From an uncultured Bacteroidales bacterium (GTDB lineage Bacteria; Bacteroidota; Bacteroidia; Bacteroidales; VadinHA17): a stretch of 64,000 nucleotides of DNA. A program made the translations under genes and the position numbers. Under the pieces are notes generated by a model that made no database searches, was not told the DNA's origin, and saw only the letters and a list, made by a program, of their open reading frames with translations. The stretch is from the NCBI GenBank assembly GCA_963789985.1, contig CAWBNA010000019.1, positions 464,464 through 528,463 of the forward strand. Reading direction: 5' to 3'. Positions 28,130 through 55,204 of this stretch are shown here, piece after piece (within the stretch, counting starts at the first letter, position 1; each line of letters starts with the position of its first letter).

Positions 28130-28202
28130 GCCTCCTTAGCTCAGTCGGTAGAGCAGCTCATTCGTAATGAGCAGGTCGTGGGTTCGAGTCCCATTGGAGG
28201 CT
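28130..28202 (+). tRNA. tRNA-Thr (anticodon CGU)
   Basis: The cloverleaf was folded by hand: acceptor GCCTCC(T)/(T)GGAGGC, D-arm GCTC-AGTCGGTA-GAGC, anticodon arm GCTCA-TTCGTAA-TGAGC with CGT central, and T-arm GTGGG-TTCGAGT-CCCAT. No CCA is encoded. Confidence 0.9.
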
Positions 28203-28203
28203 C
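28182..28203 (+). repeat. attL-like core (3' end of tRNA-Thr)
   Basis: It is identical to 48354-48375 over 22 nt. Confidence 0.75.
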
Positions 28204-28465
28204 CTAAAACGATCTCATTTTTTTCATGACCGCTTAAAATCAAGGATTTCAGGCGGTTTCCTTTTTTACAGGTACTCAAAATGTACGCCAGAACTCCTAG
28301 AATAGGGTGAAAAATCGATACCTCTTTATAAAATGCTAATTAGGTATCGCTAAACTCTGTAACTCTCTGTTTATTTTGCATTTGATTGCAGCCTTTTGCA
28401 TGATGGCGAATGCTTAATTGAGGCGAAATTTGTACATAAAAAGAGTCCTTTAAATATATGCTATT

Positions 28466-29515
28466 ATGAAAAACAAAATTGTTACTCACTTTTATGTGAG
28501 AGAAGAGAAGAAGGATAAAAAAGGAGAAGTCCCTATTTATCTGAGAATCACCATCAATGAAGAAAGAGCAAGCCTTTCAACCGATCGAAGAGTAAATCCT
28601 GAATTATGGGATAAAGCTGCTGAGGGAGTTGCTGGGAGAAGTGAAATTGCAAGAGTAATCAATACCTCACTGAATAATCTTCTAAGTAAGGTAGAAAAGT
28701 ATTTCGGTAACCTTGATGTCAAAGATGAACTTGTTTCCGTTCATCAGATTATAGCTGAACTTAAAGGTAAGGGGATTAATCAAATGACAGTTATTAAGGC
28801 GTATGAATATCAAATTAAAAAGATGGAAGAACTTTCAGGAATTGATTATGCAATTACCACTATCAATAAGTACAGATATTCTTTGAATAGTCTAAAAAGG
28901 TTTTTGAAAACTGAGTTCAACAAAACTGATATTAGACTTTGCGACTTGGATTATAGATTCATTGAACGCTATCACAAGTATTTAAGGACATCTGAAAACT
29001 TAATGCATAATTCAGCAGTTAAGAACATTAAGAATCTTTTCAGAATAATAAATATTTCTATTACAAACAAGTGGATTAATATTAATCCATTTAAAAGCTT
29101 TAGTTGTAATTTTATTGATGCTAATAGGGGTTATTTGACTGAAGAAGAGATTGAAGCATTGTACAAAAAGGAATTTGCAATTAAGAGACTAGCCAAAGTA
29201 AGGGATGTTTTTATCTTCCAAATTTATACAGGGCTATCATATTGCGATTTGGCAAGATTAACTGATGATAGCATCGAAATCGGCATTGAGGGCAAACGAT
29301 GGATCGTATTAAATCGTAAGAAAACAGGAACTAGATCAAGCATTCCAATTTTACCAAGAGCTCAGGAAGTCCTGGATAATTACAAAACTGATCCATTATG
29401 TATCTCCGATCATAAACTTCTTCCGGTCTGCACCAATCAGCGAATGAACGGGTACCTGAAAGAGATCGCAGATTTATGTGAAATTAAAAAGACTCTAACA
29501 ATTACAAAAAGCTGA
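28466..29515 (+). pseudogene. Bacteroides-type tyrosine recombinase/integrase, 3'-truncated (catalytic HxxR and Tyr regions missing)
   Basis: The N-terminal arm-binding and SAM-like domains are typical (KIVTHFYVREEKKDKKGEVPIYLRITINEERASLST...). The first catalytic Arg region RDVFIFQIYTGLSYCDL is present. The ORF stops at ...EIKKTLTITKS, where homologues normally continue with the LTxHxxRHT box. Confidence 0.65.
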
Positions 29516-30338
29516 ACGTAAGCAGGCTGTAATCAAGCTTGCCTTACAAGGTCCTTCGGGATCAGGGAAAACTTACAGTTCATTGCTAATCGCTTATGGA
29601 CTTGTTGGAAACTGGAATCAGATTGTGGTTCTGGATACAGAGAACAATTCATCACACCTCTATTCACATCTTGGCAATTACAACGTTCTGAGCCTTTCTG
29701 AGCCATTTTCTCCTGAAAGGTATATCGAAGCATTAGAGTTTTGTGAAAAGGCTGGAATGAGAGCTATAATCATTGACAGTATAAGTCAGGAATGGGAAGG
29801 AAGCGGAGGCATTATTGAAACCCACAGCAACATGGCGGGGAACTCTTTCACAAACTGGAATCGTATGACTCCACGTCATAATGCCTTTGTCCAGAAGATG
29901 CTTCAGTCGCCTAGCCATATTATTGCTACAATAAGGTCAAAGCAGGATTATGTTTTGACTGATAAAAACGGCAAGATGGTTCCAGAAAAGGTTGGACTTA
30001 AGGGTGTCACAAGAGATGGGATGGATTATGAATTCACTCTGGTCTTCGACCTTGATATTAAACATCAAGTGACGACATCAAAAGACAGGACGAATTTATT
30101 TACCAATCCTTTACCATTTACGATAACTGAGCAGACAGGCAGTAAAATAAGAATTTGGTGCTTAGGAGAAGAGCTCATTAAGAATGCCGAGATGCAAATC
30201 AATGAAGCAAAAACAGTACTGGAATTACGCAGTATCCTGCTTAAGTATCCGACTCTCAGAGACAAGCTAGATCCACTTTGTATTCAGAGGAAGAAGGAGA
30301 TTGAGAGTATTGTAACTGATCGTATTGTCGAACCTTAA
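29499..30338 (+). pseudogene. AAA_24/Sak4-like P-loop ATPase lacking a start codon
   Basis: The frame is open from 29499 and encodes ...AVIKLALQGPSGSGKTYSSLLIAYG (Walker A) and AIIIDSISQEW (Walker B). No ATG/GTG/TTG lies upstream of the P-loop, and the first possible start (TTG 29583) is after it. Confidence 0.55.
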
Positions 30339-30352
30339 GAAACAGAATAGAA

Positions 30353-31330
30353 ATGGAATTAATAAATGTACAAAATAGCATCATGCCTGATGAAGCAAAG
30401 GTTGTCGAAACTTCTGACAATAGGTTCATCCTGGCTAATACGGAGCCGATTTCTTATGGCGACCTGAAGCATAAGTGCATCATTCCTGTCTTCAGTAAAG
30501 ACAATGAGAGTACTATTTCACATTCAGAGTTCATTGATGCAGTTGGACTAGCTGTTGATAAATTCTTTTCTGCAGAGGATATACTTCATCCAGCAATAAG
30601 AATTTCACATCCAATCAAGGGGCGTATTCCTGAAGCTATGGGGAAACCTGCTGAATTATTGCTTGAACAGGAGAAGACGATTTACTACGAGAGATGTGCT
30701 TTCCTTTATGAAGTGCCTTCAATCTATTCTCTGGTGAATGGTAATAAACTTTCACTGTCAATTGGAGGAGTAAGAGCTTACAATAGCGAGAATCTTTACG
30801 GAAAGAAAACCGAGGAACATTTCAAGGTCTTCATAGGATTCAAAAATCATGTGTGCATTAATTTGTGTATTTCAACAGATGGCTTCCTTGATGATTTGAG
30901 AGTTATGTCAGTACAGGAGCTTTTTAACAGAGTATTTCAGCTTCTGACAAGATTTGATTCTGAAAGGCAAATCAATCATCTGTCCGCTCTATCAGAATAT
31001 TCTCTTAGTGAGCACGAATTTGCTCAATTAGTGGGTAAATCAAGACTGTATCAATATTTGCCAATTAAGGCAAAGAAAACATTGGATGCTCTAATGCCAA
31101 TCTCAGATACTCAAATTTCAACAGTCGGCAGAGACTATTATCAGGACAAGTCATTCTGTAGGGAAGATTCAGGCGATATTAACCTATGGAAGGTGTATAA
31201 TCTGTTTACAGGAGCTACTAAAAGCAGTTACATAGATACATTCCTTGACAGAAATGTTGCTTCACTGCTGTTCATTAATAGTCTGGTTAGGCACATAAGG
31301 AATGAGAAGCAGTCATGGTTTCTGACATAA
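30353..31330 (+). CDS. hypothetical protein, DUF3871-like (tentative)
   Basis: A 325-aa ORF starting 15 nt after the ATPase gene. The pairing with an AAA ATPase and motifs such as FKVFIGFKNHVCINLC recall the Bacteroidota DUF3871 family. This assignment is from memory only. Confidence 0.45.
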   Translation: MELINVQNSIMPDEAKVVETSDNRFILANTEPISYGDLKHKCIIPVFSKDNESTISHSEFIDAVGLAVDKFFSAEDILHPAIRISHPIKGRIPEAMGKPAELLLEQEKTIYYERCAFLYEVPSIYSLVNGNKLSLSIGGVRAYNSENLYGKKTEEHFKVFIGFKNHVCINLCISTDGFLDDLRVMSVQELFNRVFQLLTRFDSERQINHLSALSEYSLSEHEFAQLVGKSRLYQYLPIKAKKTLDALMPISDTQISTVGRDYYQDKSFCREDSGDINLWKVYNLFTGATKSSYIDTFLDRNVASLLFINSLVRHIRNEKQSWFLT

Positions 31331-33494: not shown

Positions 33495-34042
33495 TTCAAC
33501 TTGCGAGGAATAAAAAGTTTGTTGTAAGATGAAATAAGAGTGAAGGGTACATTCCATCTGGCAGATATCCTAAGTGGTTGGATTTTTTATTTGAATCACA
33601 TTAATGTTTTTCATAAATTTAACATAAGTCTTAGATCCAATTTTTAATTTCTTGATCTAGCATTTTAGAAATTAATCTTTTAAGTGCATAAAGATTATCA
33701 TTAATTCTTATTAAAAATGAAAAGATTTATCTGGTTAATGAAATCAATAAGGGGTTGATTAATTATAGGGCATGGATTCCCAGGTCTATTATTTTTGATG
33801 TCGAAACTGGAAGGCCATTAAATGATAAGGAAAAAGATGAAGAGTACGTTGTTGCGTTACCTCCTTGGTTCAAACTTAATGTCACCTCAAGATTGCCATA
33901 AAACTACCTTATTTTATATATATGAAGTTAAAAAGATAGACCACGATTATTTTGGGGATGAATAAAATGTTTCAATAAAAAAGTTTTGCAAATAAATAAT
34001 TGGAATTCAAATAAGTAACCGAAATTTTTTAAAAACAAAAAT

Positions 34043-35804: not shown

Positions 35805-35836
35805 TTAAACCATACAGATAATAACTTATAACCAGT

Positions 35837-35866
35837 CCTCGGAATCAGCTCCGGGGGGCTTATTTT
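35837..35866 (+). terminator. intrinsic terminator after FISUMP gene
   Basis: CCTCGG-AATCAGCT-CCGGGG forms a stem with one G-T pair, followed by GGCTTATTTTT. The same module lies downstream of the truncated paralogue on the minus strand at about 55150-55185. Confidence 0.5.
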
Positions 35867-36876
35867 TACTTGATAAATAACCATTCGGGTCTCTCTCTTA
35901 ATCATCCGTCCATCCAAAACCTTTTTAAATAGGACGGACATTTTAATATTGACAAACATCTTTTTTATCCCAGTATATTACTCAGATGCCCACAAATATT
36001 ACAACTAATCATAGATTAATCTTCATATTTGGCTGTAGGATTGTAAACTATTAATTGCCCCCAGACGTCCATTTCAGACGTACCTGATACACATTTACTC
36101 TCAGGGTTTTAGCAACACGCAGCAGCACGAATAACCTTCCGGTATACTGGTCATCGGTTGAGAATTATGTACTCAGAGCCGACGCTTTTATTTATGCTAT
36201 ACTGGTATAGCCCTACTTCCTCCGAAGAGGCTTTATCTCTGTTTTTAGCGAATGCTTCTCCTACATTCTTCAGAACTGTGTCAAAACTGATTCTAGGGCT
36301 TCTTTTATTGTAATCTTTGGAGGGATCTTTTGCACTTTTCTGACAGTACAAAGATAAGCATTAATATATTAATAGCCAAATTTTTACGCGAGGTTTTAGT
36401 TATACCAGAAAACGATTTCTTATTTCACAAATAGAATATTATTGGTCATTCTAAAGGAGGTGATCAAGTAAATGTTTATTCAGAAAACAAAGTTGAATCC
36501 TCTTTACTTAGGGTTTAATCCGGTAAAATATTTCATTATTTTTCATCTCCCTTCCCCAAGGATTGTTTAACTTCCGTTGATTTGTGAAGAGTGAAGATCA
36601 GGCAATAGATACATTTTTTAAGGATACTATGAGAGAAGAATATTATTATTGTGACTGATGGGGCATTGCATTATTAAGATTGAATAATATTGTAGAAATA
36701 AGTATATCACGTCAATGGCAAACTTAACTATATCTGACAAGGGATTTCTTTAAACAGTAAATTTTATACTTCTAAAAATGAGTTATCTGCAATGATATCT
36801 GATTTTCAACTAACTGATAATCAGTGGATAAATTAGTTTAGGTTATAAATTGTCTCAGTTTTAAAATCAAAGTAAT

Positions 36877-37455
36877 ATGGAAAAACTTATGTTCATTCAA
36901 ACTGTTTCAGAGGCAGAGGCTGAGGGCAAGCTCCGCGAGATCTACGAAGGAGACCGAACGAGTCTGGGGTACGTACCTAATCACGCTAAGGTTTTCAGTC
37001 TACGTCCAGAGGTGTTGGAAGCTTGGCGAGCCTTTCAAGGGAGTATTCGAAAAAACCTGAGATTGCGGCCTTATGAGTTGATCACTCTTGCGGCTGCAAT
37101 GGCATTGAAATGCCGATATTGTCTCCTTGCTCATAGCGCAATCTTGATCAAGAATGGGGTTAGCGTGGATCAGTTGCGTAGGATCCTGATAAATTTTTAT
37201 GACGCAGGACTGGAACGAACTGAAGTCGTGATGATGGAGTTCGCGCAGAAAATTATCCGGAACGCCAATGAAATATCACAGACTGATATCGATTCGCTGC
37301 ATGAAGTGGATCTCAAAGACGTCGAAATTCTCGACATTACACTGACAGCAACAATGCGTAGCTTTGCCAGTAAAACATTCGATGCGATGGGAGCGGAACC
37401 AGACTCTGTTTACAACGAATTAGAGCACCAACTAAATGATTTGCTTCCTAAATAG
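36877..37455 (+). CDS. carboxymuconolactone decarboxylase/AhpD-like peroxidase-related protein
   Basis: A 192-aa ORF. The CRYCLLAH motif (CxxCxxxH) is typical of the CMD/AhpD fold. The gene is visibly more GC-rich than its neighbours. Confidence 0.6.
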   Translation: MEKLMFIQTVSEAEAEGKLREIYEGDRTSLGYVPNHAKVFSLRPEVLEAWRAFQGSIRKNLRLRPYELITLAAAMALKCRYCLLAHSAILIKNGVSVDQLRRILINFYDAGLERTEVVMMEFAQKIIRNANEISQTDIDSLHEVDLKDVEILDITLTATMRSFASKTFDAMGAEPDSVYNELEHQLNDLLPK

Positions 37456-37880
37456 TGTAAAACCACTGCACATAACATGGACGATAGTAAGTTGTTTGTC
37501 ACGCTTTTTGCCCCTGCATCCAAGACAAATTCGTAATGGCTGATGAACCCGGACACGCCCATCTGCCCGCAATTAAAATCCTGCACATTGACTAATTTCT
37601 GGCTCCGAGACAACTTATACCGCGACACTGCGCCAGTGACCACAACCAACTTTGTAACCGGGGATAAATTCGGGACTCCGATCAACCTTGTACCTCGACA
37701 CTCGTATAGGTCACAAAACTCGTACCAGGACGGCAAAAACCACGCCGTACCTTCCTTGCACCTTGACAGTTTTATGGCTAAAATACCGGGACCCTATCCG
37801 GCGCTTGCGTCGGGTAACACCTACTAATTTTGTGAGGCTAATTTAGAGGTTAGGGCAAATGAAAATTAATTTCTGTAAAC

Positions 37881-38624
37881 ATGACTGAAATAATTGAACT
37901 ATTCGAGAAAAAAGTATTTGAGATTTATTCAATCGAAAAGTTAACAGCTCTTCAAGACAATGATTACTCTTTTGAAGGAGTAAATGTTCTAGAAATGATT
38001 AGCCTATCAAGGAAATATTCTCTCCCAAATCCGTCTTTCAACGATATGAAACACACATGGGATATAATAAATTGTAATTCAGACTTAAGATATTTTACAG
38101 CGTTGCTCTTCCTCTACAAACCCTTTATTAACAATCCAATTAATGAAAGCGTATATTTTGAGGAACGCCTTCTCTTTACATACTTTCAAAATAGGTATGA
38201 CCATAGATACAGCCAATTTGCGAGTATCTGCTTTGAAAAACTATATAATTATTGTGATAGAATTGGGGACGTATTGGCGAACCGTTATTTCGATAAATTT
38301 CAGAATCCTCAAAATATTTATTTTCCTAAAGTAATCGATAAATTAAGATTAGATAGTAATATTCAGAATGACTCATTTTTTAAAGAAATAATCATTTATC
38401 GAGATAATGAATATAAGGAGCATAATGAAAAAAGAAGAGAAATTGTTCATTATCATCAATTTGAGACAAATTACAGGTATGATTTCACCCTTAATTCAAC
38501 GAATAAAGAAGAAATAACTAAACTTTGGGATTTTAAAAAAAACCTTCCTGAATATTTTAAAAAACAGCTTGATAAATCCAACCAATTGTTTTTAAATACA
38601 TTTAACTTCCTTAATAAAAGATAA
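37881..38624 (+). CDS. HEPN-motif protein (Rx4H: RREIVH), unknown subfamily
   Basis: A 247-aa, very AT-rich, all-helical-looking ORF. RREIVH is encoded at nt 38433-38450. FEKLYNYCDRIGDVL resembles Abi-type HEPN families. No partner gene is apparent. Confidence 0.45.
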   Translation: MTEIIELFEKKVFEIYSIEKLTALQDNDYSFEGVNVLEMISLSRKYSLPNPSFNDMKHTWDIINCNSDLRYFTALLFLYKPFINNPINESVYFEERLLFTYFQNRYDHRYSQFASICFEKLYNYCDRIGDVLANRYFDKFQNPQNIYFPKVIDKLRLDSNIQNDSFFKEIIIYRDNEYKEHNEKRREIVHYHQFETNYRYDFTLNSTNKEEITKLWDFKKNLPEYFKKQLDKSNQLFLNTFNFLNKR

Positions 38625-38884
38625 TTGCTATAACACGGCAATGCTATGAAGAGCATGGTCCCGGGTCAGATCAAATTTGTACACGTACTTTTAAAACTGT
38701 TCAATGCTTCGTTCATTCTGGCTGGTCCCAGGACTCTACCCTGATTCAGATTTTCTGCTCCAGCCTCCATTCACTCAGCAACATTTTCTTGCTTTATTGC
38801 CGAGCCTTTAGACGTCATGCCAAACTGCGACTGCGTTACTGAAAAATGAAAATTGAAATGATTACGACATTCTAAAACGATATT

Positions 38885-39550
38885 ATGCCAATCCCAGGTA
38901 AAACAATTTTCGGACCTCATCTGACTGAGCCTAGATCAGTTGATTTTGGAGAAGTTCGCCAAATTTCTGATGATGGTTTAAAACTTAACTATCTAAAACT
39001 GAGGCTTGAAACTTTTCTCATTAGTCAAATAAATCCTATTTCGGATAGAAATAAAGTTTACTCACCATTTCCATTAACTGTGCTGACATGCACAGCAGTT
39101 GAAACCTTAGGGCGTGTTGTCTTTCCGGTTGCAGAATTTGAAAAAGATAGTAAAAAGAGCAAGGAAATCTCAAAAATTGTCTCTGTTCCCATTTATGCTA
39201 TGCTTGACAAAAAGCTTTCGAGACAATTAACAAAAGAATTTAAAAAATTAATGGGCGAAAAATGGCCTAATGAAAACATTAAAAACATTTCAAGCTATGC
39301 GGAACTTTTTCATAGTTATTTAAGGAATTCATTTATTCATGGATATAGAGTAAAAAATGTTCTTTTAAGCGCAGAATTAGAATCTGGATGGGATTTAATT
39401 GATGGTTCGTTAGTAATTAATCCATACTGGTTTTGGGATCAGTATAAGCAAGTATTTAATAAATGTTTTGATAAAGTATTTGATAATAAAAAGAAGAATA
39501 ATTCATATAAGAAGAATGCTTTAGAGTTCTTTAACAGACTGATAAATTAA
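38885..39550 (+). CDS. HEPN-motif protein (RNxxxH: RNSFIH)
   Basis: A 221-aa ORF. ELFHSYLRNSFIHGYR (nt 39323-39340 encode RNSFIH) fits the canonical HEPN RNxxxH endoRNase motif. Confidence 0.5.
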   Translation: MPIPGKTIFGPHLTEPRSVDFGEVRQISDDGLKLNYLKLRLETFLISQINPISDRNKVYSPFPLTVLTCTAVETLGRVVFPVAEFEKDSKKSKEISKIVSVPIYAMLDKKLSRQLTKEFKKLMGEKWPNENIKNISSYAELFHSYLRNSFIHGYRVKNVLLSAELESGWDLIDGSLVINPYWFWDQYKQVFNKCFDKVFDNKKKNNSYKKNALEFFNRLIN

Positions 39551-40069
39551 TATACACTAACGCTCAGCAACGTATATAACCAATTGCTGGCTGAGGGTTT
39601 GCTAAGGACTACTCTTTTGGTTACTTTGTACTAACTCGACCACAGAGCACCCTGAATACGCAACTGGTCATACCCGCGAACGTTGGATGTAATTTAAAAT
39701 GAACAACTACTATAAAAATAAGCTTAATGATTTTTTCAATGATTTGAGTAAAAAACTGAAAAGTAAGGCTATTCTAAATAAAAAGGATATAAAAAGTCTT
39801 TTCCTAAGCACACTGGATTTGCATAATATTCCTTATCCTGCTTCAGAAATTGAGGAATTCTTTTTACATCCAAAAATAGTTGCGGACTTATTGATTGAGT
39901 TAATAAATAACGATTATTTAACACCCGATGATAGGTTTAAATTATATCCAACGTTTACTGAAATCCGTAAGAAATTAAGGAAACCGAAATCTTCTTATTC
40001 TTACAAGTTAAGAGTTCTTGCACCAGGGGGATTATATCCTAATCTTGAAATAAAGAGAGGATATTCAAG

Positions 40070-40078
40070 ATATTTTAT
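40070..40078 (+). repeat. target-site duplication (left) of IS4-family element
   Basis: ATATTTTAT, identical to 41507-41515. Confidence 0.85.
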
Positions 40079-41506
40079 CACTGTTATCCGATTAATAATT
40101 TAGATTCGTAATTGACTCCCATAAGTATCTGATTATCAATCATCATATCTTTCATTTAAAAATTGACCCCCTGCATATTAAAGCATAATTGTAACCCGGG
40201 AGGGATTGGTTTACTCTTAAATCTTCTTTTTGTGCTCCGCAGCAGCTCCTTAACATCCAGCATGCTTATTAAGTGTATCCGGACCAATGATGCTACCACT
40301 GAAAAGGCTTTCTTTGCCTGCGCGATCTTTTGAGTCACAGTCAATAGCAGTTGGGCTATTAATGTGCACCAGACCTGAGTATAGATGGCATTTTCGTTCT
40401 CTCCGTAAAAGTAATGTAACTGGAAGTTCTGTTTCATTTTCTTGAACAGTATCTCAATACCCCATCTTTTCTTGTAAAGTAATGCCACATCTTCAGCTTC
40501 AATATCAAAGTTATTTGTCAGAAAATCAAAATATCGGTTCTGTTCATCTTGATAACTGACCTTTCTCAGTTTCATTTTGAGTTTGGTCTTAATATCTTGC
40601 TTGCCGTCTTCTTTTTCAGGATGATATTCCAGTTCGATGATCTCATCCCTTAACACTTTTGCCTGCCCTGCCTTACGATAATGAACTCGTTTAACCTCTT
40701 TAACCGTAAATACAGCATTCCTTTTCATCCGGGTGACAAAATATACCTGTTGTGTGGTCCAGAGCGTAAACTGTTGATAATAATTATAGGCTTTATCAAA
40801 GACTATCATGCTGTTAGATATCAGTTCCAGGCTTTTTAAGAACTTTTGATCATTGACCTTTGCTGCTGTCATTTTAATAAACCTACCAACCGATTGAACC
40901 GCATCAATAAGCATATGGACCTTCATTCCGCCTTTCTTCCTGCCATCTCCTTTGGGATTACGGCCAACTCCCTTTAATATGTCACTAAATAACCGGATAG
41001 TCGTTGAGTCGATAATAAGTACCTCTTTAAAAGTCAATCCAAATGTCCGGCTGTCCGATAAAAAATTCTGATAATGTTTTATCAGGCTAAAATACAGATC
41101 TTCAAAAAACTTGCTGCTCCTGTTGCGTAAACCATCACATGCCGTACTCTTAGCTGGTGCCTGATCCATACCAAGATGATTAAGCTTGCCGCCCATTGCA
41201 CGCAGACCTTCGCAGACTTCAGTCATCGAATCGCACCGGCTTAATATCCCGAACAGCATCGTAAAAAGGTGAGTCCGCGTTTTAAATGACTTGTAATAAT
41301 AATCACTCTCGTGCTTCTTAATCAACCCCTTTATATTGACCTTGTCAACTAAATTCATTATCTGTTTGAAAATCGGCTGTCCGACTAATTTTATTTCTGT
41401 AATTTTACCCATGTTGTACTTGATTTTATGCAAAGACCAAATTACAACATCGGGGGGAACCCTCATGGGATACCCCCGTTTTTATTATTTTAGTCGGACA
41501 CTAGTG
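40079..41506 (-). mobile_element. IS4-family insertion sequence (1428 bp)
   Basis: It has imperfect terminal inverted repeats, CACTGTTATCCGATTAATAAT (left) and CACTAGTGTCCGACTAAAATAAT (right, reverse complement). It is flanked by a 9-bp direct repeat ATATTTTAT and holds a single transposase ORF. Confidence 0.85.
40156..41412 (-). CDS. IS4-family DDE transposase
   Basis: The ATG at 41412 (MGKITEIKLVGQPIFKQ...) starts the ORF. DDE-type motifs are LIIDSTTIRL and MIVFDKAYNYY, and the Y-x2-R-x3-E-x6-K signature is YKKRWGIEILFKKMK. Confidence 0.85.
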   Translation of the reverse strand: MGKITEIKLVGQPIFKQIMNLVDKVNIKGLIKKHESDYYYKSFKTRTHLFTMLFGILSRCDSMTEVCEGLRAMGGKLNHLGMDQAPAKSTACDGLRNRSSKFFEDLYFSLIKHYQNFLSDSRTFGLTFKEVLIIDSTTIRLFSDILKGVGRNPKGDGRKKGGMKVHMLIDAVQSVGRFIKMTAAKVNDQKFLKSLELISNSMIVFDKAYNYYQQFTLWTTQQVYFVTRMKRNAVFTVKEVKRVHYRKAGQAKVLRDEIIELEYHPEKEDGKQDIKTKLKMKLRKVSYQDEQNRYFDFLTNNFDIEAEDVALLYKKRWGIEILFKKMKQNFQLHYFYGENENAIYTQVWCTLIAQLLLTVTQKIAQAKKAFSVVASLVRIHLISMLDVKELLRSTKRRFKSKPIPPGLQLCFNMQGVNF

Positions 41507-41515
41507 ATATTTTAT
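41507..41515 (+). repeat. target-site duplication (right) of IS4-family element
   Basis: ATATTTTAT, identical to 40070-40078. Confidence 0.85.
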
Positions 41516-42468
41516 TCAAAATCAGCAACCAATATTACTGACTAAGGACAAAAATTATAAGGATATCTTCTCTAATAGTTCAATAATAAATTGGTTAACA
41601 AAAAATGAGTTAAAGTTTGCTACAGCTATAATGTGTGCGCCAAAACAAGGAATCTTTCATTTAGATTTTACAAACTATAACACAATAAATATAGATTGTG
41701 ATTGTATAGATGCTATACCAGATGGATTAAAAAACTTATTTCTTCGAGAATATTTTGAGATCAATAAACGATTTACACCAATTGGTTTTCGTGCATGGCA
41801 TAGGCAACCCATGCCTGACTTAATGGCATACGAATTTTCTTCTTACAATGATTCGATTGAATATTTCAACAAGCTTTATGATAATTTTAAAATATCGGAC
41901 CATCTTTTATTAAGGACATGCAATTATTTTGTCAAAGCTATAATGCATTGGAGCAATCAGATTTATATTGAAGAGGCTATTGCGAATTCCTTTTTCTGCC
42001 TTGAAGGTTGTTTACATCTGATTCAGAAAAAGTATGGCGATCACAACTTAAAGCTTAATATGAAGCTTTTAAATGAAGTATTTAAGAATGATATACCCTA
42101 TGGAGAAAATCTCTTTGAGTTTATCAAAGAAGGATATGAGAAAAGAAATACATTAGTTCATGCAGAGCCAGAATGGGGAGCTGATTGGAGTCCATTTTTG
42201 ACAGCAGAAGATTTTTATGAGTATTTTAAACTTTGTCGAGAATTACTTAATTTCATTCTCATTGATAGACAATTAGATGATTTATAATATAAACTACAAG
42301 CAATACATGGTATAAGCAAAATCAGGGCATGCAGCAGGTTTAAACGTTTTACCCCGCACTAAAGTTTGTTCTCCGAAATAGATATGTGCACCAAAGTCCA
42401 ACAATACCAATACATCCGACTTTTTTATACAAGGCTTTAAAGCCATTCATTTTTATTTAATAATATCT

Positions 42469-42508
42469 GACCAACTCAGGAATAATAATCCTCAGTTGGT
42501 CTTTTTTT
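42469..42508 (+). terminator. intrinsic terminator upstream of radC-like gene
   Basis: GACCAACTCAGG-AATAATAAT-CCTCAGTTGGTC pairs at 11/12 positions and is followed by TTTTTTT. Confidence 0.7.
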
Positions 42509-42532
42509 ATCCCACAATTAAATCTTATTATC

Positions 42533-42991
42533 ATGAAACAATCAGATATAAATATATCCGAGGTAAAACTTATTTACCGAACTAAGATCAAAGCTTCAGA
42601 GAGGCTGCAGGTAAAATCCTCAAAGGATGCATTTGATATCTTTATGGAGCATTGGGATCTTGATTCAATAGAACATGTCGAGGAATTTAAGCTCATGCTA
42701 TTAACTAGATCAAATAAAGTCCTGGGAATAGCATCAATCTCAAAAGGCGGGATTTCTGGCACAGTCACGGATGTGAGGGTCATTTTGCAGTATGCAATTA
42801 AAGCCAATGCCAGCGGCATCATAATTTGTCATAACCACCCATCAGGCAATTTAAAGCCAAGCGAATCTGATCTGACAATCACAAGAAAGGTTAAGGATTC
42901 AGGTGCTTTGATGGATATTCAGTTATTAGACAATCTGATAATCATCCCGGAAGGCAGGTATTATAGCATGGCGGATGAAGGAATAATTTAG
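42533..42991 (+). CDS. radC: RadC-like JAB/MPN-domain protein
   Basis: A 152-aa ORF. The JAMM motif IIICHNHPSGNLKPSESD (HxHx7Sx2D) is present, and the size is that of mobile-element RadC proteins. Confidence 0.8.
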   Translation: MKQSDINISEVKLIYRTKIKASERLQVKSSKDAFDIFMEHWDLDSIEHVEEFKLMLLTRSNKVLGIASISKGGISGTVTDVRVILQYAIKANASGIIICHNHPSGNLKPSESDLTITRKVKDSGALMDIQLLDNLIIIPEGRYYSMADEGII

Positions 42992-43281
42992 ACGGAACCC
43001 ATTATTTGCAGATTTTATTTTAACTGCGCATAAATAGCTAGTGTTAAAAAGGTATAAGAATTTTTACTCTACGTAGCTACCACCTACCCCTGTTTTTTCA
43101 ACGATCTTCTCCTAAGTGGTGTTCTAGTATTACCCAAGTTAAAGTGGCTATTTTTAGGGTACCGGTAAGGTAGCTAGGACATTTTTAGAATATTTTAATT
43201 ATTACACGTTTAATACAGTTAATCAGATATATAAAATCTGAACTTAATTTCATAATTTATTAACTTTTAAAACTCAATGTT

Positions 43282-43899
43282 ATGTTACCAGGACCAACAA
43301 TTATAATATCTTGCCCATTATGTGGGCAGTATGCAAAGAAAAAGACCTTAATCTCAGGCAATACCTTTGGTGCAGTTTTATGGTCTGACGGCAAAAGAAT
43401 AGCACCGATGTTACCAGAATTTCCAAGCTTAGTTCTTTGTAAGAAATGCGATCAGTTTTATTGGGTAAAAAATGCTAATAAAGTTGAGGAAATCAGCAAT
43501 TACTCAGAAATAAAAGATAAATGGGGGAATATTGATTTCGTTGAATTCCCGACCTTTCATCAGTATTTTATTGCTTTAGAAACGATTTCTAACGAGAAGT
43601 TTATCAGAATAAACATCTGGTGGAGCTTTAACGATTATTTCAGGAATAATCATGAAAATGATATTACACCGGATATGCAGAAGCTGAATACTAAAAACTT
43701 AATTGCTTTATTGAAAATTCTGGATGAATCTGACAACAATGAGCTGCTAATGAAGGCTGAGGTACTTCGTAATTTAGGACAGTTTAAAGAGAGCAAGCAG
43801 CTATTTGACAGAATAAGTGATGACGATATGGGCTGGGTAAAAAAGAAACTTCTGGTAGAGATAAATAAGCATAATACACAGGTGTTTCAATTGTATTAA
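43282..43899 (+). CDS. hypothetical protein with N-terminal zinc-ribbon (CPLCG...CKKCD)
   Basis: A 205-aa ORF with two CxxC pairs 39 residues apart and a helical C-terminus. No family was recognised. Confidence 0.45.
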   Translation: MLPGPTIIISCPLCGQYAKKKTLISGNTFGAVLWSDGKRIAPMLPEFPSLVLCKKCDQFYWVKNANKVEEISNYSEIKDKWGNIDFVEFPTFHQYFIALETISNEKFIRINIWWSFNDYFRNNHENDITPDMQKLNTKNLIALLKILDESDNNELLMKAEVLRNLGQFKESKQLFDRISDDDMGWVKKKLLVEINKHNTQVFQLY

Positions 43900-44274
43900 A
43901 TATGAATGCCGGTATGTTAAAATTCCTACCTATTCTAACCCGTTTTCAACCAGAATGGATTTATACAGATTTAATATTATAGCTAAATAGCATAAATCAT
44001 TGCTCTCAGATTCTGATTAGTAGTGGCTGGAAAATCAGGTTGAACTGAGCACTCAGTACCGGAGTACTTTGAGCATATGATTCCGAATGCGATTGAGCAT
44101 CTGAAACCTGAACATAAATATTACAATATCAAAGGGGAATGGTAAATAAATTTGATGTATATATGAATATTCTTTCAGTTTATTCTTATTCTTATTGAAT
44201 TGTTCAATATTTCCAAACCAGCACTAATCACCATTACATATTCCAATATTTAAGCATAGCTGTTTAAAATAAAA

Positions 44275-44305
44275 TTGACTTCAGCTTTTTGCTGGCGTAA
44301 CTTGC
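44275..44305 (+). promoter_or_regulatory. promoter, TTGAC-N18-TAACTTGC, upstream of small OM beta-barrel gene
   Basis: The sequence reads TTGAC ttcagctttttgctggcg TAACTTGC, preceded by TTTAAAATAAAA, 56 nt before the ATG at 44361. Confidence 0.45.
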
Positions 44306-44360
44306 ATCATATTTCTGACTTACTGATATTTATTTTTTCTATTAACCAAATTTCAATCAA

Positions 44361-44921
44361 ATGAAAACATTTTGTAAAGCCAAAATAATTGTCGTATTAC
44401 TGTTACTTTGTACAAATGGTATACAGGCACAAACGGCACAGATAAAACTTTATCAGGTTGTCTCAGCGGAAAATTTAAATTCAAAACCAGGATTGATAAA
44501 CATCACTGAGGTTAATATGGGAATTGGATTGTTCCAAACTAACCGGGATTACTCAAAAAGGTTTTATAATATTTCAGACATTTTTGGGATTGGCATCCTA
44601 AAAAATCTGATAGGAGGGATCGGCATAGGAGTTTCATTATATAACGGCGGCAGTCTGATTCCTCTTTTCGTGGATCTTAGGTATTTTATAAACATCGGGA
44701 AAATAAGTGTTTTTGCTTTTGGTGATGGTGGAATACTTTTGAACTCTGCCAAAACCACTGGTGGAACAAAAATTCTGATAAACCCGGGCGCAGGAGTGGC
44801 TTTACCTGTCAGCAAAAATCTGTCAGTAAACCTTGGGGCAGGCCTGTTCGTTAACCTTATGAAAGATTATGCTACCGACAGCTTCGTCAGTATTAAGGCT
44901 GGAATGACTTATTATTTTTAA
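44361..44921 (+). CDS. small outer-membrane beta-barrel-like protein
   Basis: A 186-aa ORF with signal peptide MKTFCKAKIIVVLLLLCTNGIQAQ. It has Gly-rich amphipathic strands and a C-terminal GMTYYF (terminal Phe). Confidence 0.5.
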   Translation: MKTFCKAKIIVVLLLLCTNGIQAQTAQIKLYQVVSAENLNSKPGLINITEVNMGIGLFQTNRDYSKRFYNISDIFGIGILKNLIGGIGIGVSLYNGGSLIPLFVDLRYFINIGKISVFAFGDGGILLNSAKTTGGTKILINPGAGVALPVSKNLSVNLGAGLFVNLMKDYATDSFVSIKAGMTYYF

Positions 44922-45077: not shown

Positions 45078-47222
45078 ATGTCAGCCATTATTGAAGGATA
45101 TAATTATGACATCTTCATCAGCTATCGCCAGAAAGACAACAAACACGATGGCTGGGTAACAGAGTTTGTAGATAACCTGAAGGGAGAACTTGAATCGACA
45201 TTTAAAGAGGAAATTAGTGTTTACTTCGACATCAACCCACATGATGGACTTTTGGAGACACATGATGTTGATGCCTCTTTGAAAGATAAACTTAAGTGCC
45301 TTGTCTTTATCCCAATTATTTCCCGCACATATTGTGATCCCAGGTCATTCGCATGGGAGCATGAGTTCAAAGCTTTTATTAATGAAGCCTCCCAAGATCA
45401 GTTTGGATTAAAGGTAAAACTGCCTAATGGGAATGTTACAAGTAGGGTATTGCCAGTTCAGATACATGAACTTGATGCTGGAGACAGGACGATTATTGAA
45501 AGTAAACTTGGAGGATTTTTAAGAGGTATTGAGTTCATCTATAAGGAACCCGGAGTCAATCGACCCCTTATGGCAAATGAAGATCATCCAGATAATAATC
45601 TCAATAAAACTTTCTATCGGAACCAAATAAACAAAGTTGCTAATGCTGTAAAAGAGATTATTACTGCAATAGCACATCCTGGACAAAAGACTGAAGGGAT
45701 TTTAAAAGAGGTTGTTAATATAAAACCTAAAAAGGCAAAAAATCTGAAAATAAAAACCATTGCTGTATCTGTTATAATACTTTTACTTATTATTCTTGGT
45801 TATTACTTAATAACCACACTTACTAAACAAAAAGAACAGCGTGCAAAATCTGTTGCTGTTTTACCTTTTATAAACGACAGCCCTAATGATTCGACCACTT
45901 ACTTCATGGATGGCGTTATGGAAGAAATACTCACGAATCTGCAGACAGTCAAGAATCTCAGGGTTATTTCCCGTACCTCTGTTGAACAATATAGAAAACA
46001 AACCAAATCCGTCCATGAAATTGCGAAAGAACTGGGTGTGAATTACATTGTGGATGGTAGCGGACAAAAATCCGGCAATAGTTTTCGTCTAAGGGTAAAA
46101 TTAATTAGGGCAAATAAAGAAAGTAATATCTGGGCAAAGTCATATGATCAGGATAATCCTGAAGCTAAAGATTATTTCAGCATACAGAGCCAGATAGCCC
46201 AGGCAATAGCAACACAATTAGAAGCAGTAATAACGCCTCAGGAGAAACAGCTTATTGAAAAAACACATACAGCAAACCTATCCGCTTACGATGCTTTTCT
46301 TAAAGGTGAATTTTATCGGAGGAAACGAACTCAAAATGATCTCAAGACTGCAATGAAATATTATCAGATTGCTTTGGAGAAAGACCCTAAATATGCCCGA
46401 GCTTATTGTGGTATTGCTTACGGCTGGTCTGAGTTTTTGGAAATGGGTTATATATCTCCATCCGAGGGATTACCAAAAGAGTACGAAGCATTAATGACTG
46501 CAGAAAAACTCGACAGTACTCTTGCTGATGTTCATTATGGTCTTGCTGTTTACACATGGAACAAATGGGATTGGAAAAGCAGTGACTCTGAATTTCAAAA
46601 AACTATCAGAATTAATCCCAATAATGCTGAAGCATATGCAGGCTACTCACAATTTCTAATTGCATTAGGTCGTTCGGAAGAAGCAATGAAACAGATAGAT
46701 TTGGCGCTTAAACTGGATCCAAATAATCCACTGATTAATGGTCGCTTCAGCTTTGATTTATTATTTGTGCAGCGATATGATGAGGCTATCTCTGTTAGTC
46801 GTGAAGCGCTTAAAAAAGATCCTGCCTGTGGTTCCGGATTATATGCTTTACAGTTTGCCCTTCATTTGACCGGCAGATATGATGAAGCGTTGGAACTTTG
46901 GAAGACAAACTATTTCGTAGGCTATCCAGGTTTTGTTCATGCTTTTGATAAAGGTTATGCTAAAGCAGGCTATATAGGAGCACTAAGTTTTGAGGCGGAT
47001 ACTCTTGTTGCACAGTCAAAAGCTGCATATATTAATCCATTTGATATTGCTATTCTTTATGTCTGTTCCGGGAATAAGGAGCGAGCTTTAGATTATTTGG
47101 AAGGTGGTTTTGAAGTACATGATGTTAATTTGACTTTTTTGTCATTGCCAATATTTGACTGTCTGCATAACTCACCTCGCTATCAAGCTTTATGTAAGAA
47201 AATGAACCTTCCTTATAGATAA
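45078..47222 (+). CDS. TIR-domain / single-TM / TolB_N-like / TPR-repeat protein
   Basis: A 714-aa ORF. The N-terminal TIR signature is YDIFISYRQKDN...LVFIPIISRTYCDPRSFAWEHEF, with no signal peptide. The TM helix is IKTIAVSVIILLLIILGYYLITTL. The next domain is SVAVLPFINDSPNDSTTYFMDGVMEEILTNL...VISRTS...LGVNYIVDGSGQKSGNSFRLRVKLI (COG5616/TolB-N-like). About 300 aa of TPR-like repeats follow. Confidence 0.7.
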   Translation: MSAIIEGYNYDIFISYRQKDNKHDGWVTEFVDNLKGELESTFKEEISVYFDINPHDGLLETHDVDASLKDKLKCLVFIPIISRTYCDPRSFAWEHEFKAFINEASQDQFGLKVKLPNGNVTSRVLPVQIHELDAGDRTIIESKLGGFLRGIEFIYKEPGVNRPLMANEDHPDNNLNKTFYRNQINKVANAVKEIITAIAHPGQKTEGILKEVVNIKPKKAKNLKIKTIAVSVIILLLIILGYYLITTLTKQKEQRAKSVAVLPFINDSPNDSTTYFMDGVMEEILTNLQTVKNLRVISRTSVEQYRKQTKSVHEIAKELGVNYIVDGSGQKSGNSFRLRVKLIRANKESNIWAKSYDQDNPEAKDYFSIQSQIAQAIATQLEAVITPQEKQLIEKTHTANLSAYDAFLKGEFYRRKRTQNDLKTAMKYYQIALEKDPKYARAYCGIAYGWSEFLEMGYISPSEGLPKEYEALMTAEKLDSTLADVHYGLAVYTWNKWDWKSSDSEFQKTIRINPNNAEAYAGYSQFLIALGRSEEAMKQIDLALKLDPNNPLINGRFSFDLLFVQRYDEAISVSREALKKDPACGSGLYALQFALHLTGRYDEALELWKTNYFVGYPGFVHAFDKGYAKAGYIGALSFEADTLVAQSKAAYINPFDIAILYVCSGNKERALDYLEGGFEVHDVNLTFLSLPIFDCLHNSPRYQALCKKMNLPYR

Positions 47223-48353
47223 TTATTGTTAATATCAACTTTGCATATCTTTATCTGGAAGCCAAAAAGGCTGTTGCCGGGCAGAAGAATAATTGATTTA
47301 CAATCAAAGAATGGCAAACACACAAATAAACATAGGAAGGTTGACTGTGTATTGATTAGGGGTGGCTAATAATAAAGGAAGACAAGGAAATTGATCCCCA
47401 GCTCCATTGGAAAGAATTCTTTTTCCCCTCATAAGTAAAAAACCTGAAAGGGAACCCAGATTCTTATCGTAATATATCCCCTGAAACCTCTGTTAACCCT
47501 TAATTCGGCAGACATATCACCTTGGGTGGATGTGCACCTTTAACACCACATCTTTATCCTTTACAACAGGGGGTAAAAGGCTATTTATTATCCTTGCTTC
47601 CCGTACGGAAGCATTACTTTGAGACAGGTTTCTATTGGCAAAATTCCTTAGGAGTTTTATGAAATCTATATGCTTAAATATATCTCCTTGAAGGTGGTAT
47701 CTACATCAATGTGAGAAGATATTCCTTTATAATAGGGCAAAGAACGTCTGTAAGAATTGATTTCTTGAAAAGATACCCTAAATTTGCGCATCAAGTTGAA
47801 GAAAGATGCAGATAGAGAATTGGGGAATAACTTATTAAAAACTGAAATTATGGAAAAATTATCAACAAGAGAAAGTCATTTAAAAAGAGTGGGAAACAAG
47901 AGAAAAGCAATGATGAAAGGTAAAGAATATCATTTCTCAAACAAGAAGTCTTCTTCAAAGTTTAGAAAAATTCTGGAAAACAACTGCTTAATAATAAAGC
48001 AATTAAGTGGAGAATCACAGAATAGGCTTTTGTTATTATAGTGTAAGTACTCTGTATTTGATTGATATTGTTAAGGATATTGATAGCCCATGTCGGTTTA
48101 GAAGTATTGGAAGCCACCCAGAATAAGAGCGTAAAATGCCGAAACAAAATATGGGAATATACTGTAAAGAGTATCTGACACAGAATGAGAATTTCTATCA
48201 ATAGCCAGAAATAAGGTTACGCAAAAAAAGCTGTTGCCAATCAAAAGAATAATTAACTTTGTCATTGCAGATGTAAGCAGAGAGGAGTATTTTTCGAGAC
48301 CTGTAAAAGCTGTATCTCTGTAGTAAATTGATTATAAGCGAAGTGAAAAAATA

Positions 48354-48375
48354 GTTCGAGTCCCATTGGAGGCTC
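48354..48375 (+). repeat. attR-like copy of tRNA-Thr 3' end
   Basis: GTTCGAGTCCCATTGGAGGCTC is identical to 28182-28203. No tRNA body lies upstream of it. Confidence 0.75.
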
Positions 48376-48563
48376 AAACTCGTAATCTACGCTGCATTAA
48401 ATCAACTAATTATAATAATAAAGAACGAGCAGAGCATTCGAGAAGTATGCAAGCTCCCTTCACCGGGAACTTTTCTCTTTCTGTAAAATTATAAATAAAA
48501 CAAAACTGCAAAACCTAGTAATTGATTTTTCTTAACTTCGATTCATAATAAGTTAGTTTTTCT

Positions 48564-51775: not shown

Positions 51776-53142
51776 TTAAGGTTTGTACGGAAGGTTGATC
51801 TTATGAAATAGATCCTGATAGCGAGGCTCATCATGAACAAATTCATAGATAGGGTCTCTTATATTACCGGATAAATTTGGATCATGAACTTCATAATCTT
51901 TTTCCAACATTTCTAATGTTCGCTCCTTATTACCGGCACAAGCATAAAGTTGTGCAATTTCGCAAGGTAAAATAAATTTTGTCTTTGACTGCTTTACAAG
52001 GCTGTCAGCCTGAAGATTCAATGCACAAGTTAAACCTCCGTTAGCAAAACCCTGATCAAAAACATTTGCATAGCCTTTGAAATTGGTGCTGTAATCCACT
52101 TCCCATGCTTCAAGTTCTTCACTATACCTTCCAACCCCATGAAGTGCAAGTGGAAGATTATCTAAGACTTCAACATTACCCGGATCAATTTTTAGTAACT
52201 CCTGTAATAACTTTATTGCTTCATTATATCTACCAGTATAAGACAATATTAACCCATTACCTGTTTTCAGACCGTTGTTCATCGGGTCCAGTTTTAAAAC
52301 CATCACGTGCTGCTCCAATCCTTCTTTGGGGCGTCCTAAAAGAATTAATAAAGCTGCATACCACACATGTACATCTGCATTGTTGGGATTAAGAAATAGC
52401 CAGGAACAATAAGAACAAGTATTATAACAGATGCAACAATTGTTTTTGAGATAAGCTTTTTTGGATGTTCCGGTTTTTCTCTAACAACTTCTTTTGAAAC
52501 TTCTCCGACCTGCTGATTATGTTTCTTTATCACTGCAATAATCTCCTTTATTGCGTTTGCAACCTTGTTGATCTGATCCCGATAGAAGGTTTTATTGAGA
52601 TTGTCCTGAGGGTGGTCTTCATTTGCTCGCAATGGTCGGTTAACACCTGCTGACTTATAAATAAATTCTATACAACGAAGAACTCCACCAAGTTCATTTT
52701 CAAGAAGGGTTTTATCTTCAGGATCGAGATCATGAATTTTGATTGGCAATATCCTGCTGGCTACATTTCCACTGGGCAGTTTTATCTTCAATCCGAACTG
52801 ATCCTGTGAGGCAAGCTCTACAAATGCCTTGAACTCATGTTCCCATGCGAATGATTTGGGATCACAATATGTGCGGGAAATGATTGGGATAAAGACTAGG
52901 CACTTCAGTTTATCTTTCAATGAGGTATCAACGTCATGTGTCTCCAAAAGTCCATCATGAGGATTGATATCGAAATAAACGCTGATCTCTTCTTTGAAAG
53001 TTGATTCGAGTTCCGTCTTCAAAGCCTCTACAAACTCACTGACCCACCTGTCGCCTTTGTTGTCTTTCTGGCGGTAGCTGATGAAGACCTGCCTTGCCGG
53101 CAGGCAGGTGTCGTAATTATATCCTTCTATGATGCTTGACAT
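51776..53142 (-). pseudogene. second TIR-TM-TPR paralogue, inactivated by an internal out-of-frame deletion
   Basis: 52345..53142 encodes the TIR and TM parts and is highly similar to 45078.. residues 1-245. 51776..52366 encodes the last ~190 aa of the TPR region. The two join at a single TTAAT (52388-52392, minus strand) in different frames. The equivalent segment in the intact copy is 805 bp, between two TTAAT sites at 45807 and 46612. Confidence 0.8.
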
Positions 53143-55137: not shown

Positions 55138-55204
55138 TTTTATTTAACAAAGCCCCCGCGATTATTCCGAGGGCTGGCAATAAGTTATTATCTGTATGGT
55201 TTAA

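Follow-up and report, generated by a model that had tools for sequence, protein, structure and literature searches.

Why do three same-strand genes, whose proteins share an Rx4H motif near the C terminus and are otherwise dissimilar, follow one another in a Bacteroidales genome, and what are the spacers that separate them? We addressed this question for ORF1, ORF2, and ORF3 (ORF, open reading frame), which lie in a 64,000-nucleotide (nt) stretch of contig CAWBNA010000019.1 from an uncultured Bacteroidales bacterium; this whole stretch is referred to as the window. Its source is an 815-kb metagenome contig (ENA ERZ25039512). Our analysis makes it probable that we are looking at a short segment, now in decay, of an integron-like gene-cassette array of a type that abounds in Bacteroidales and allied anaerobes, with each Rx4H gene as a separate cassette and the spacers as recombination-site-like repeats. 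Two components of this reading were observed: each of the three genes forms a unit of its own that is met in other contexts, and the spacers proved to be copies of a structured repeat from which co-oriented arrays, with a tyrosine recombinase at their head, are built. The plus strand carries nearly all genes between 36.8 and 43 kb of the window, in the order CMD gene, repeat of ~385 nt, ORF1, truncated repeat, ORF2, short repeat variant, ORF3 with an insertion sequence (IS), terminator-like hairpin, and RadC gene. The organization is tandem and co-oriented, with three repeat copies or variants between four same-strand genes. Loci in other genomes are denoted below by L numbers and homologous proteins by P numbers.

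A first-pass annotation of this DNA had described the three genes as unrelated, orphan HEPN-motif genes in a cassette-like organization. The motifs RREIVH, RNSFIH, and RNTLVH lie where it had placed them (Table 1), and the three proteins are indeed dissimilar elsewhere, with no profile-profile similarity among their families (hhalign probability ≤0.2%). Rx4H was found in just 7 of the 40 window ORFs of at least 150 amino acids, which makes three neighboring genes with the motif in the C-terminal third unlikely by chance. The arginine and the histidine are invariant in all three families (R185/H190 of ORF1 in the 27 sequences of alignment A1, R147/H152 of ORF2 in the 28 of A2, and R213/H218 of ORF3 in the 21 of A4), and a conserved acidic motif lies in a helix 47 to 74 residues before Rx4H (YNxWDRIGD in ORF1, ETLGR in ORF2, and EGCLHL in ORF3). 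The genes proved not to be orphans: we listed 33 homologues for ORF1, 41 for ORF2, and 22 for the C-terminal part of ORF3, and an exhaustive profile search returned 161 cluster representatives among 1.84 billion for ORF2, a small family of stand-alone proteins of ~220 amino acids. Close homologues of the three genes have quite different neighborhoods, which indicates that the three genes are independent single-gene units, and the cassette-like organization holds in the integron sense, with the unit boundaries in the spacers. The neighborhoods of homologues are defense-island-like, with HigB, an HpaII restriction-modification system, HNH, HamA, and Mrr. Furthermore, as the annotation had said, no MNT-type nucleotidyltransferase, antitoxin-like gene, or other partner gene was found beside ORF1, ORF2, or ORF3 in the ORF list, by Pfam, or by PADLOC, and the genes therefore do not form a HepT-MntA pair. 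PADLOC reported nothing meaningful for the three genes and their neighbors, and NCBIfam matched none of the three.

Next, we considered whether the three proteins are HEPN RNases, as had been supposed. For ORF1 this held: the protein matches Pfam PF18730 (HEPN_Cthe2314) at 33.7 bits over residues 83 to 245, against a gathering cutoff of 27.1, most of its homologues have the same precomputed Pfam match, and the homologue P0078 bears the NCBI name “Cthe_2314 family HEPN.” These profile matches identify ORF1 as a Cthe_2314-type HEPN protein. ORF2 and ORF3 are predicted to be HEPN-like from their invariant Rx4H and the acidic motif in the upstream helix; profile and structure searches did not demonstrate the fold. 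It is a serious alternative, although in our judgment an unlikely one, that only ORF1 is HEPN and that Rx4H in ORF2 and ORF3 is a family-specific motif of helical proteins with some other function. ORF2 has no match in Pfam, NCBIfam, PADLOC, or PDB sequences; its distant family members from the exhaustive search have no Pfam match either, and the attempt to bridge through them to a known HEPN family failed, and an hhalign comparison with the Cthe_2314 alignment was negative. None of 18 ORF3 family members matched the Pfam HEPN models, and the ORF3 profile, like that of ORF2, found nothing among PDB sequences. The AlphaFold2 model of ORF2 (pLDDT 91.5) is mostly helical and that of ORF3 has a pLDDT of 72 (Foldseek E > 3); in Foldseek searches, neither the two models compared with PDB nor the ORF2 model compared with BFVD gave anything with an E value below 0.1. 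Against this alternative stand the invariant R and H at a spacing of four in both families with the acidic motif upstream, the genomic company of toxins and defense genes, the UniRef name of the ORF3 homologue P0047 (“Apea-like HEPN domain-containing protein,” for which the Pfam match was not reproduced), and the best HEPN structure match of the ORF2 model, which was AbiV (9bj7) but was not significant (E = 0.48, probability 0.38). At another locus (L007, 6001 to 7580), a PF05168 HEPN protein is encoded directly 3′ of an ORF2 homologue; the pair, another tandem of unrelated HEPN-type genes, shares its island with a HamA gene and a serine recombinase.

The spacers were examined through homologous contigs. 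The sequence 37456-37880 (spacer 0) has a GC content of 47%, 38625-38884 (spacer 1) has 42%, and 39551-39698 (spacer 2) has 43%, compared to 28 to 31% for the ORFs and a window mean of 38.5%. The annotation's statement that the spacers are GC-richer than the AT-rich ORFs is thus correct for these three and incorrect for the fourth, 42288-42468, at just 34%. In L015, an ORF2 homologue with 89% identity is flanked on both sides by sequences 77 to 80% identical to window positions 37465 to 37820, and the contig starts with the end of a third repeat copy. In L012, partial repeat copies lie at either end of a four-gene unit that includes an ORF1 homologue with 76% identity. Repeat copies around homologues of ORF1 and ORF2 thus indicate that spacer 0 (37471 to 37855) is itself a repeat. 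The spacer 1 copy (38666 to 38813) is 80 to 82% identical to copies in L034, L102, L124, and L132 (blastn, E down to 3 × 10−32), attained an nhmmer score that none of 300 shuffles reached, and can be aligned with the end of the intact repeat that precedes the ORF2 homologue of L015. The spacer 2 copy (39556 to 39688) is 82% identical to a segment of ~135 nt inside the L106 array, with which that segment is co-oriented, and its bottom strand folds end to end (z = −1.96); nhmmer found no similarity between this copy and the long repeat. A repeat search within 36000 to 44500 yielded no family common to the spacers, because the three copies are different variants or parts of the repeat and become visible only through homologous contigs. 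Nor did nhmmer detect the long repeat in the other intergenic regions of the window that were searched (33495-34042, 35805-36876, 42288-42532, 42992-43281, 43900-44360, and 47223-48563). We also considered the spacers as gene relics and rejected this: six-frame translations gave GC-driven open frames only, and the repeat alignment showed noncoding evolution.

We then characterized the repeat across its copies. Full-length copies (n = 134) have a median length of ~400 nt. Conservation starts exactly at AAC (within cTAAC-ACGGA-CAATATGGG) and stops at CCCATATTG-CCGGGCC-GTTA, and the flanks on both sides are AT-rich and unconserved. The repeat is noncoding, with variability that lacks a 3-nt periodicity and deletions relative to the consensus that are nearly all 1 to 2 nt, and its interior is modular: blocks of ~70 to 87 nt are missing in varied combinations, and some motifs, CCTGCACCGTGACAAATTTCTGGCT and TTGTACCGCGACAC among them, are found repeatedly. 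The ends form an imperfect stem of ~26 bp. Across 128 nonredundant copies, 27 tested pairs (the terminal stem plus one long-range helix) were 95% pairable, and compensatory changes affected 13 pairs and 205 cells, compared to 12 to 47 cells when partners were slid by 1 to 3 columns and at most 92 in 300 column shuffles. Columns 22:373 (GC in 93 copies, AT in 27), 21:374 (TA in 95, AT in 20, and GC in 3), and 40:285 (AT in 58, GC in 55) are examples. Covariation was also strong well inside the repeat (columns 39:286, 40:285, and 242:252), which indicates a branched fold and not a simple hairpin; an RNAalifold consensus of the whole repeat gave the terminal stem only, and the interior helices come from the covariation scan. 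At two stem positions, 94 to 98% of copies have A.C on the gene strand and hence G.T on its complement; the bottom strand is accordingly the better folder (pairability 0.93 versus 0.86 for the top strand). An intact copy folded as single-stranded DNA has its ends paired in both the minimum-energy and the centroid structures.

A fold conserved in this way could also belong to a structured RNA, either an antisense RNA or a 3′ untranslated region or insulator that silences, stabilizes, or terminates cassette transcripts, with the arrays built by another process. We consider this improbable. The compensatory covariation across a branched fold with a long-range helix would suit an RNA, as would the strongly conserved interior, which is unusual for attC sites, and the wobble pattern that favors the strand antisense to the genes. 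However, Rfam returned no family for the window region or the intact repeat copies at either gathering or E-value thresholds, and total folding energy is only slightly better than that of shuffles (z = −1.9 as DNA and −0.5 as sense RNA). Moreover, conservation ends exactly at AAC and GTTA while cassette homology starts at GTTAGG, which fits recombination cores better than transcript ends, and the position of the recombinase also speaks against an RNA.

To place these copies in context, we gathered arrays by scanning one genome per species with a conserved 26-base motif pattern, which gave at least 329 repeat copies in at least 119 loci (8-kb fragments). The loci listed are mostly from Bacteroidales, Rikenellaceae, Prolixibacteraceae, and Lentimicrobium metagenome-assembled genomes (MAGs), with several from Ignavibacteria and single contigs labeled Flavobacteriaceae, Planctomycetales, and Aminicenantes. 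Long-read MAG contigs in which the repeat is plentiful include CAVPCP010000008.1, CAVPBE010000002.1, and CAWJKD010000003.1. Among the matches listed, to which the array counts in this paragraph and the next refer, none of the 75 multicopy loci had copies in mixed orientation; the 210 intercopy intervals had a median of 856 nt, and the longest ORF was on the strand of the repeat in 193 intervals versus 15 on the opposite strand. The intervals had a GC content of 34.8% and the repeats 49.8%, so the “inverted” GC pattern of the window is a general property of these arrays. The cassette proteins are diverse (117 proteins formed 111 clusters) and include a PF05168 HEPN protein, a HepT-like RNase, an MNT-type nucleotidyltransferase, PIN, ParE, and HigB.

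When the array loci were searched by motif for tyrosine recombinases, a single family emerged, at 8 loci, and in 8 of 8 the gene was upstream of the repeats and on the same strand. Two independent metagenome loci, out of 80 that encode relatives of the recombinase, also have the repeat downstream on the same strand. The recombinase is closest to XerA/XerC/XerD and the integron integrases (209 to 213 bits against NF040815, cutoff 220) and has an N-terminal extension of 110 to 250 amino acids. These findings bear on the possibility that the repeat is a nonautonomous transposable element, similar to a miniature inverted-repeat transposable element (MITE) or a repetitive extragenic palindromic (REP) sequence, in an ordinary defense island where the HEPN genes are mere neighbors. 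Like MITEs and REP sequences or bacterial interspersed mosaic elements, the repeat is short, noncoding, multicopy, and intergenic, with imperfect terminal inverted repeats, and the homologues do occur in defense-island-like surroundings. Unlike them, it is clustered, strictly co-oriented both between copies and with the genes, and regularly spaced with about one gene per interval; the same recombinase heads its arrays, and compensatory changes keep a long stem. In addition, no transposase accompanies the repeat, its flank profiles give no sign of target-site duplications, and a search of 2.9 million viral contigs gave a single match. Together these points leave a transposable element with little probability.

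The junctions themselves allowed us to revisit the 21- to 22-nt box that the first-pass annotation had placed ahead of the ORFs. DNA homology with the contigs that carry ORF1 homologues (L012 to L014) begins exactly at 37849, where L012 reads GTTAGGGTAAATG. Box 1 (GTTAGGG, 37849) and box 3 (GTTGGAT, 39682) start at true junctions, whereas box 2 (38835) falls within the leader 5′ of ORF2. The true junction of that spacer is TTTAGAC (38807 to 38813), a mutated form; L015 reads GTTAGGCGTCATG at this position. The sequence common to boxes 1 and 2 came down to the 11-mer AAATGAAAATT, which occurs twice in the window (9 of 100 shuffles gave at least two occurrences) and in only 8 of the 262 flanks downstream of repeat copies among the matches listed; it is thus not significant, and the proposed box is for the most part a coincidence. 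The proposal that AT-rich toxin genes were inserted serially into a preexisting GC-richer backbone, or between gene relics, with one such box per insertion, can be set aside as highly implausible, since for all the GC difference and the 11-mer common to two boxes, the spacers are the array's own structured, multicopy, noncoding repeat copies and not unique backbone or relics, and the 11-mer is chance-compatible and absent from other junctions, with box 2 off the junction. Between a repeat copy and the ORF1-homologue cassette of L012 lies a 135-nt segment (149 to 282) bounded by GTTAGGGG and GTTAGGGT, which may be an empty or vestigial minicassette.

Several observations weigh against an integron-like array. 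Classical attC sites are about 57 to 141 nt long, a length that the repeat of ~390 nt far exceeds and that only the short variant at 39556 to 39688 (~135 nt) falls within, and the interior of the repeat is conserved in sequence, unlike that of attC sites. The recombinase scores 189 to 197 bits against the integron integrase model TIGR02249, under the cutoff of 265, and lacks the IntI-specific insertion, with 23 residues where VchIntIA (2a3v) has 65. Within the 64-kb window, tblastn found no array-type (Xer-like) recombinase, and nhmmer found no array repeat downstream of ORF3, where there is a terminator-like hairpin. The sole near-full repeat copy of the window no longer pairs its ends: the copy at 37471 to 37855 has lost 3 nt of its 5′ box, its 3′ box has diverged, and its ends are unpaired on folding, unlike those of the intact L015 copy. 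When the ORF2 cassettes of the window and L015 are compared, homology stops where the downstream repeat begins (its 5′ end) and not between G and TT, which does not fit a simple exchange between G and TT. No recombination event was observed, in the form of either excised circles or empty sites, and the 7 usable pairs gave no clear answer on which flanking repeat copy, the upstream or the downstream one, moves together with a cassette. The collection of loci rests on a conserved-motif pattern, and MAG taxonomy may hold binning errors, especially for repetitive contigs. Lastly, Pfam, PDB sequence search, and Foldseek do not support a HEPN fold for ORF2 and ORF3.

If the locus is nevertheless an integron-like array, as we favor, the analogy of integron attC sites suggests how it may work. 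The tyrosine recombinase would take the repeat's folded bottom strand as its substrate and would cut GTTRRR between G and TTRRR to excise or insert a gene plus its repeat; crossover would occur between G and TT, and gene and repeat would move as a circle. The three proteins are predicted to be stand-alone HEPN-type RNases that would act as toxins or abortive-infection effectors and cause growth arrest or abortive infection. They might be tolerated without antitoxins either because expression is weak for cassettes remote from a promoter or because N-terminal domains gate their activity. The copy in the window is probably frozen or fossilized, given that the 64 kb yielded no recombinase, that its repeats have eroded or truncated ends, and that an IS4-family insertion has inactivated ORF3.

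A wider proposal, which we advance tentatively and hold to be somewhat less likely true than false, is that the repeat of ~390 nt is the recombination site of an unrecognized, widespread system, analogous to integrons, in Bacteroidales, Ignavibacteria, and other anaerobes. It would pair such sites with a Xer-like recombinase that lacks the IntI domain and whose N-terminal extension may read conserved internal motifs of the repeat, and it would maintain dozens of cassettes per genome as a stockpile of toxin and defense genes. Such arrays would be invisible to current integron finders because their sites are about three times too long. We found no description of these arrays in the literature, our coverage of which was incomplete. 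In six further loci (L137, L165, L178, L189, L195, and L202), the sequence downstream of recombinase relatives holds direct repeats of different, unrelated families (56 to 463 nt, spaced 0.4 to 7 kb apart), within which contigs often end, and the recombinase-plus-array platform may be much broader than one repeat family. Contigs often break right after the recombinase gene, at less than 1 kb downstream in 9 of the 16 loci with a full 10 kb upstream.

The third gene required a correction, as the first-pass annotation had counted three consecutive ORFs and missed an IS within the last one. Homologues of ORF3 are 368 to 382 amino acids long; a 134-amino-acid ORF at 39699 matches their N terminus, with the part before the IS corresponding to residues 1 to 127 of the 382-amino-acid P0043, and the ORF ending at 42287 matches residues 166 to 381. 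Both parts tile in alignment A3. Since the two parts match one homologue, 39699-40078 and 41516-42287 are one gene of ~383 amino acids split by the IS, and the reading frame becomes continuous again when the IS and one of the two target-duplication copies are removed. ORF3 is thus an IS-disrupted pseudogene. The element at 40079 to 41505 belongs to the IS4 family: it has a DDE transposase (Pfam DDE_Tnp_1, 99 bits, and DUF4372), imperfect terminal inverted repeats, a 10-bp target duplication (GATATTTTAT, at 40069-40078 and 41506-41515), and a further copy elsewhere. Short-read contigs from the same strain stop at 40078 and 40105, that is, at the IS edge. The second copy, at L018 4460 to 5893, aligns over window positions 40077 to 41509 with 80% nucleotide and 87% protein identity and lies within a repeat array of another Bacteroidales MAG, and this IS4-family element seems to frequent such arrays.

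The features of the cassette region are collected in Table 1. The CMD gene ends 15 nt before the start of the first repeat copy (37471) and, lying directly upstream of it, may be the preceding cassette.

Table 1. Coordinates of the cassette region in the window
Feature	Position	Strand	Basis
CMD-family (carboxymuconolactone decarboxylase-like) gene	36877..37455	+	Pfam PF02627, 46 bits
Near-full structured repeat, ~385 nt, from CATAAC (R″-like) to GTTAGGG (R′-like), terminal pairing boxes eroded	37471..37855	+	nhmmer, 422 and 347 bits
GTTAGGG, 5′ junction of the ORF1 cassette (R′-like core, GTTRRR)	37849..37855	+	Start of homology with L012 to L014
ORF1, 247 amino acids, Cthe_2314-family HEPN protein, RREIVH at 38433-38450	37881..38624	+	Pfam PF18730
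5′-truncated repeat copy (3′ ~150 nt), variant subfamily, ends in mutated R′ TTTAGAC (38807-38813)	38666..38813	+	blastn, nhmmer
ORF2, 221 amino acids, stand-alone helical protein of an unannotated family, RNSFIH at 39323-39340	38885..39550	+	41 homologues; HEPN-like by inference only
Short repeat variant, ~135 nt, from ACTAAC to GTTGGAT, R′-like core at 39682-39688	39556..39688	+	82% identity to L106 segment
ORF3, N-terminal part, to the IS insertion point	39699..40078	+	Aligns to P0043 residues 1-127
IS4-family insertion sequence, transposase at 40156-41466	40079..41505	-	Pfam DDE_Tnp_1 and DUF4372; 10-bp target duplication
ORF3, C-terminal part, RNTLVH at 42144-42161	41516..42287	+	64% identical to P0043 residues 166-381
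Inverted repeat followed by a T-run, terminator-like, 3′ of ORF3	42460..42510	+	Inverted-repeat search, sequence reading

About 9 kb upstream of the cassettes, a tRNA-Thr gene (28130 to 28204) is followed by a Bacteroidota-type integrase gene (28466 to 29515), in which just the Arm-DNA-binding and SAM-like (N-terminal) domains were detected, and then by AAA_24 and DUF3871 genes. This region (28130 to 31330) looks like the edge of an integrative element, and the tRNA and integrase genes suggest that the cassettes may sit inside or beside such an element. Other genes of the window have homologues inside arrays elsewhere, among them RadC, the 714-amino-acid tetratricopeptide repeat protein encoded at 45078 to 47222, the 265-amino-acid protein encoded at 52345 to 53142, the Fib_succ_major proteins, and the same IS; the 714- and 265-residue proteins have an N-terminal module common to array cassette proteins (L034 and L054, 48 to 73% identity). 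Judging from these matches, further parts of the window may derive from array cassettes. Short repeated segments with 76 to 86% identity (35805-35861 versus 55150-55204, and 44268-44303 versus 53449-53484 and 55109-55153) adjoin two Fib_succ_major paralogues and a third intergenic region, and one of them also matches L024. The window further contains a 2,363-amino-acid ORF on the plus strand (6367 to 13458).

How does the locus compare with known systems? Like chromosomal integrons, such as the Vibrio cholerae superintegron with its VCR/attC sites, the arrays are long and co-oriented, with single short ORFs between similar repeats that have imperfect inverted-repeat ends with a conserved AAC...GTT and a fold preferred on the strand complementary to the genes. 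As in integrons, cassette boundaries lie at GTTRRR, the cassettes are rich in toxin-antitoxin and defense genes, and a tyrosine recombinase of the Xer/IntI clade stands at one end of the array; the window, with repeats and no integrase, resembles a cluster of attC sites lacking an integron integrase (CALIN). The differences lie in the repeat, which at ~390 nt is conserved inside, modular, and branched in its fold, and in the recombinase, which lacks the IntI-specific insertion, bears the N-terminal extension, and points in the same direction as the cassettes; at the array heads, seen in 8-kb fragments, no attI site or Pc promoter was identified. In array geometry, and in the attC-like ends and fold of the repeat, the system matches an integron; in site length and in the missing IntI-specific domain it does not; the closest known kind is a sedentary chromosomal integron or a CALIN, and we do not class the locus as an integron. 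The host phylum is also nearly without integrons by IntegronFinder 2.0, whose findings for Bacteroidetes comprised only In0 elements and a single complete integron (PMC9024848). Elsewhere, sedentary chromosomal integrons bank compact single-gene antiphage defense systems, including HEPN-like genes and AbiV (bioRxiv 10.1101/2024.07.02.601686).

Two other kinds share some of these traits. The pdif modules of Acinetobacter plasmids likewise carry accessory or toxin genes bounded by sites of Xer-type tyrosine recombinases. Their sites are 28-bp duplexes in alternating orientation served by the host XerC/D, whereas the repeats here are folded, ~135 to 390 nt long, and direct and have a dedicated recombinase gene. 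The three proteins resemble stand-alone HEPN toxins and Abi proteins (Cthe_2314, Apea-like, AbiV, AbiU2, and the HepT of HepT-MntA) in their invariant C-terminal Rx4H, their helical build at 220 to 380 amino acids, and their setting among defense and toxin genes, and ORF1 matches the Cthe_2314 model. They differ in that ORF2 and ORF3 have no significant HEPN profile or structure match, no MNT antitoxin is adjacent, and ORF3 is inactivated by the IS.

Taken alone, the window offers something more modest: a fossil piece of such an array, in which one HEPN gene is annotated, two Rx4H genes are not, and an IS has inserted. If, however, the repeat functions as an outsized attC-like site for a Xer-type recombinase, it would represent an overlooked large cassette-capture system in a major phylum of gut, sediment, and soil. 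Thousands of compact toxin and defense cassettes would then be open to discovery, including new HEPN-like families such as those of ORF2 and ORF3, and the arrays would provide a natural experiment on how tyrosine recombinases without the IntI-specific domain recognize folded DNA.

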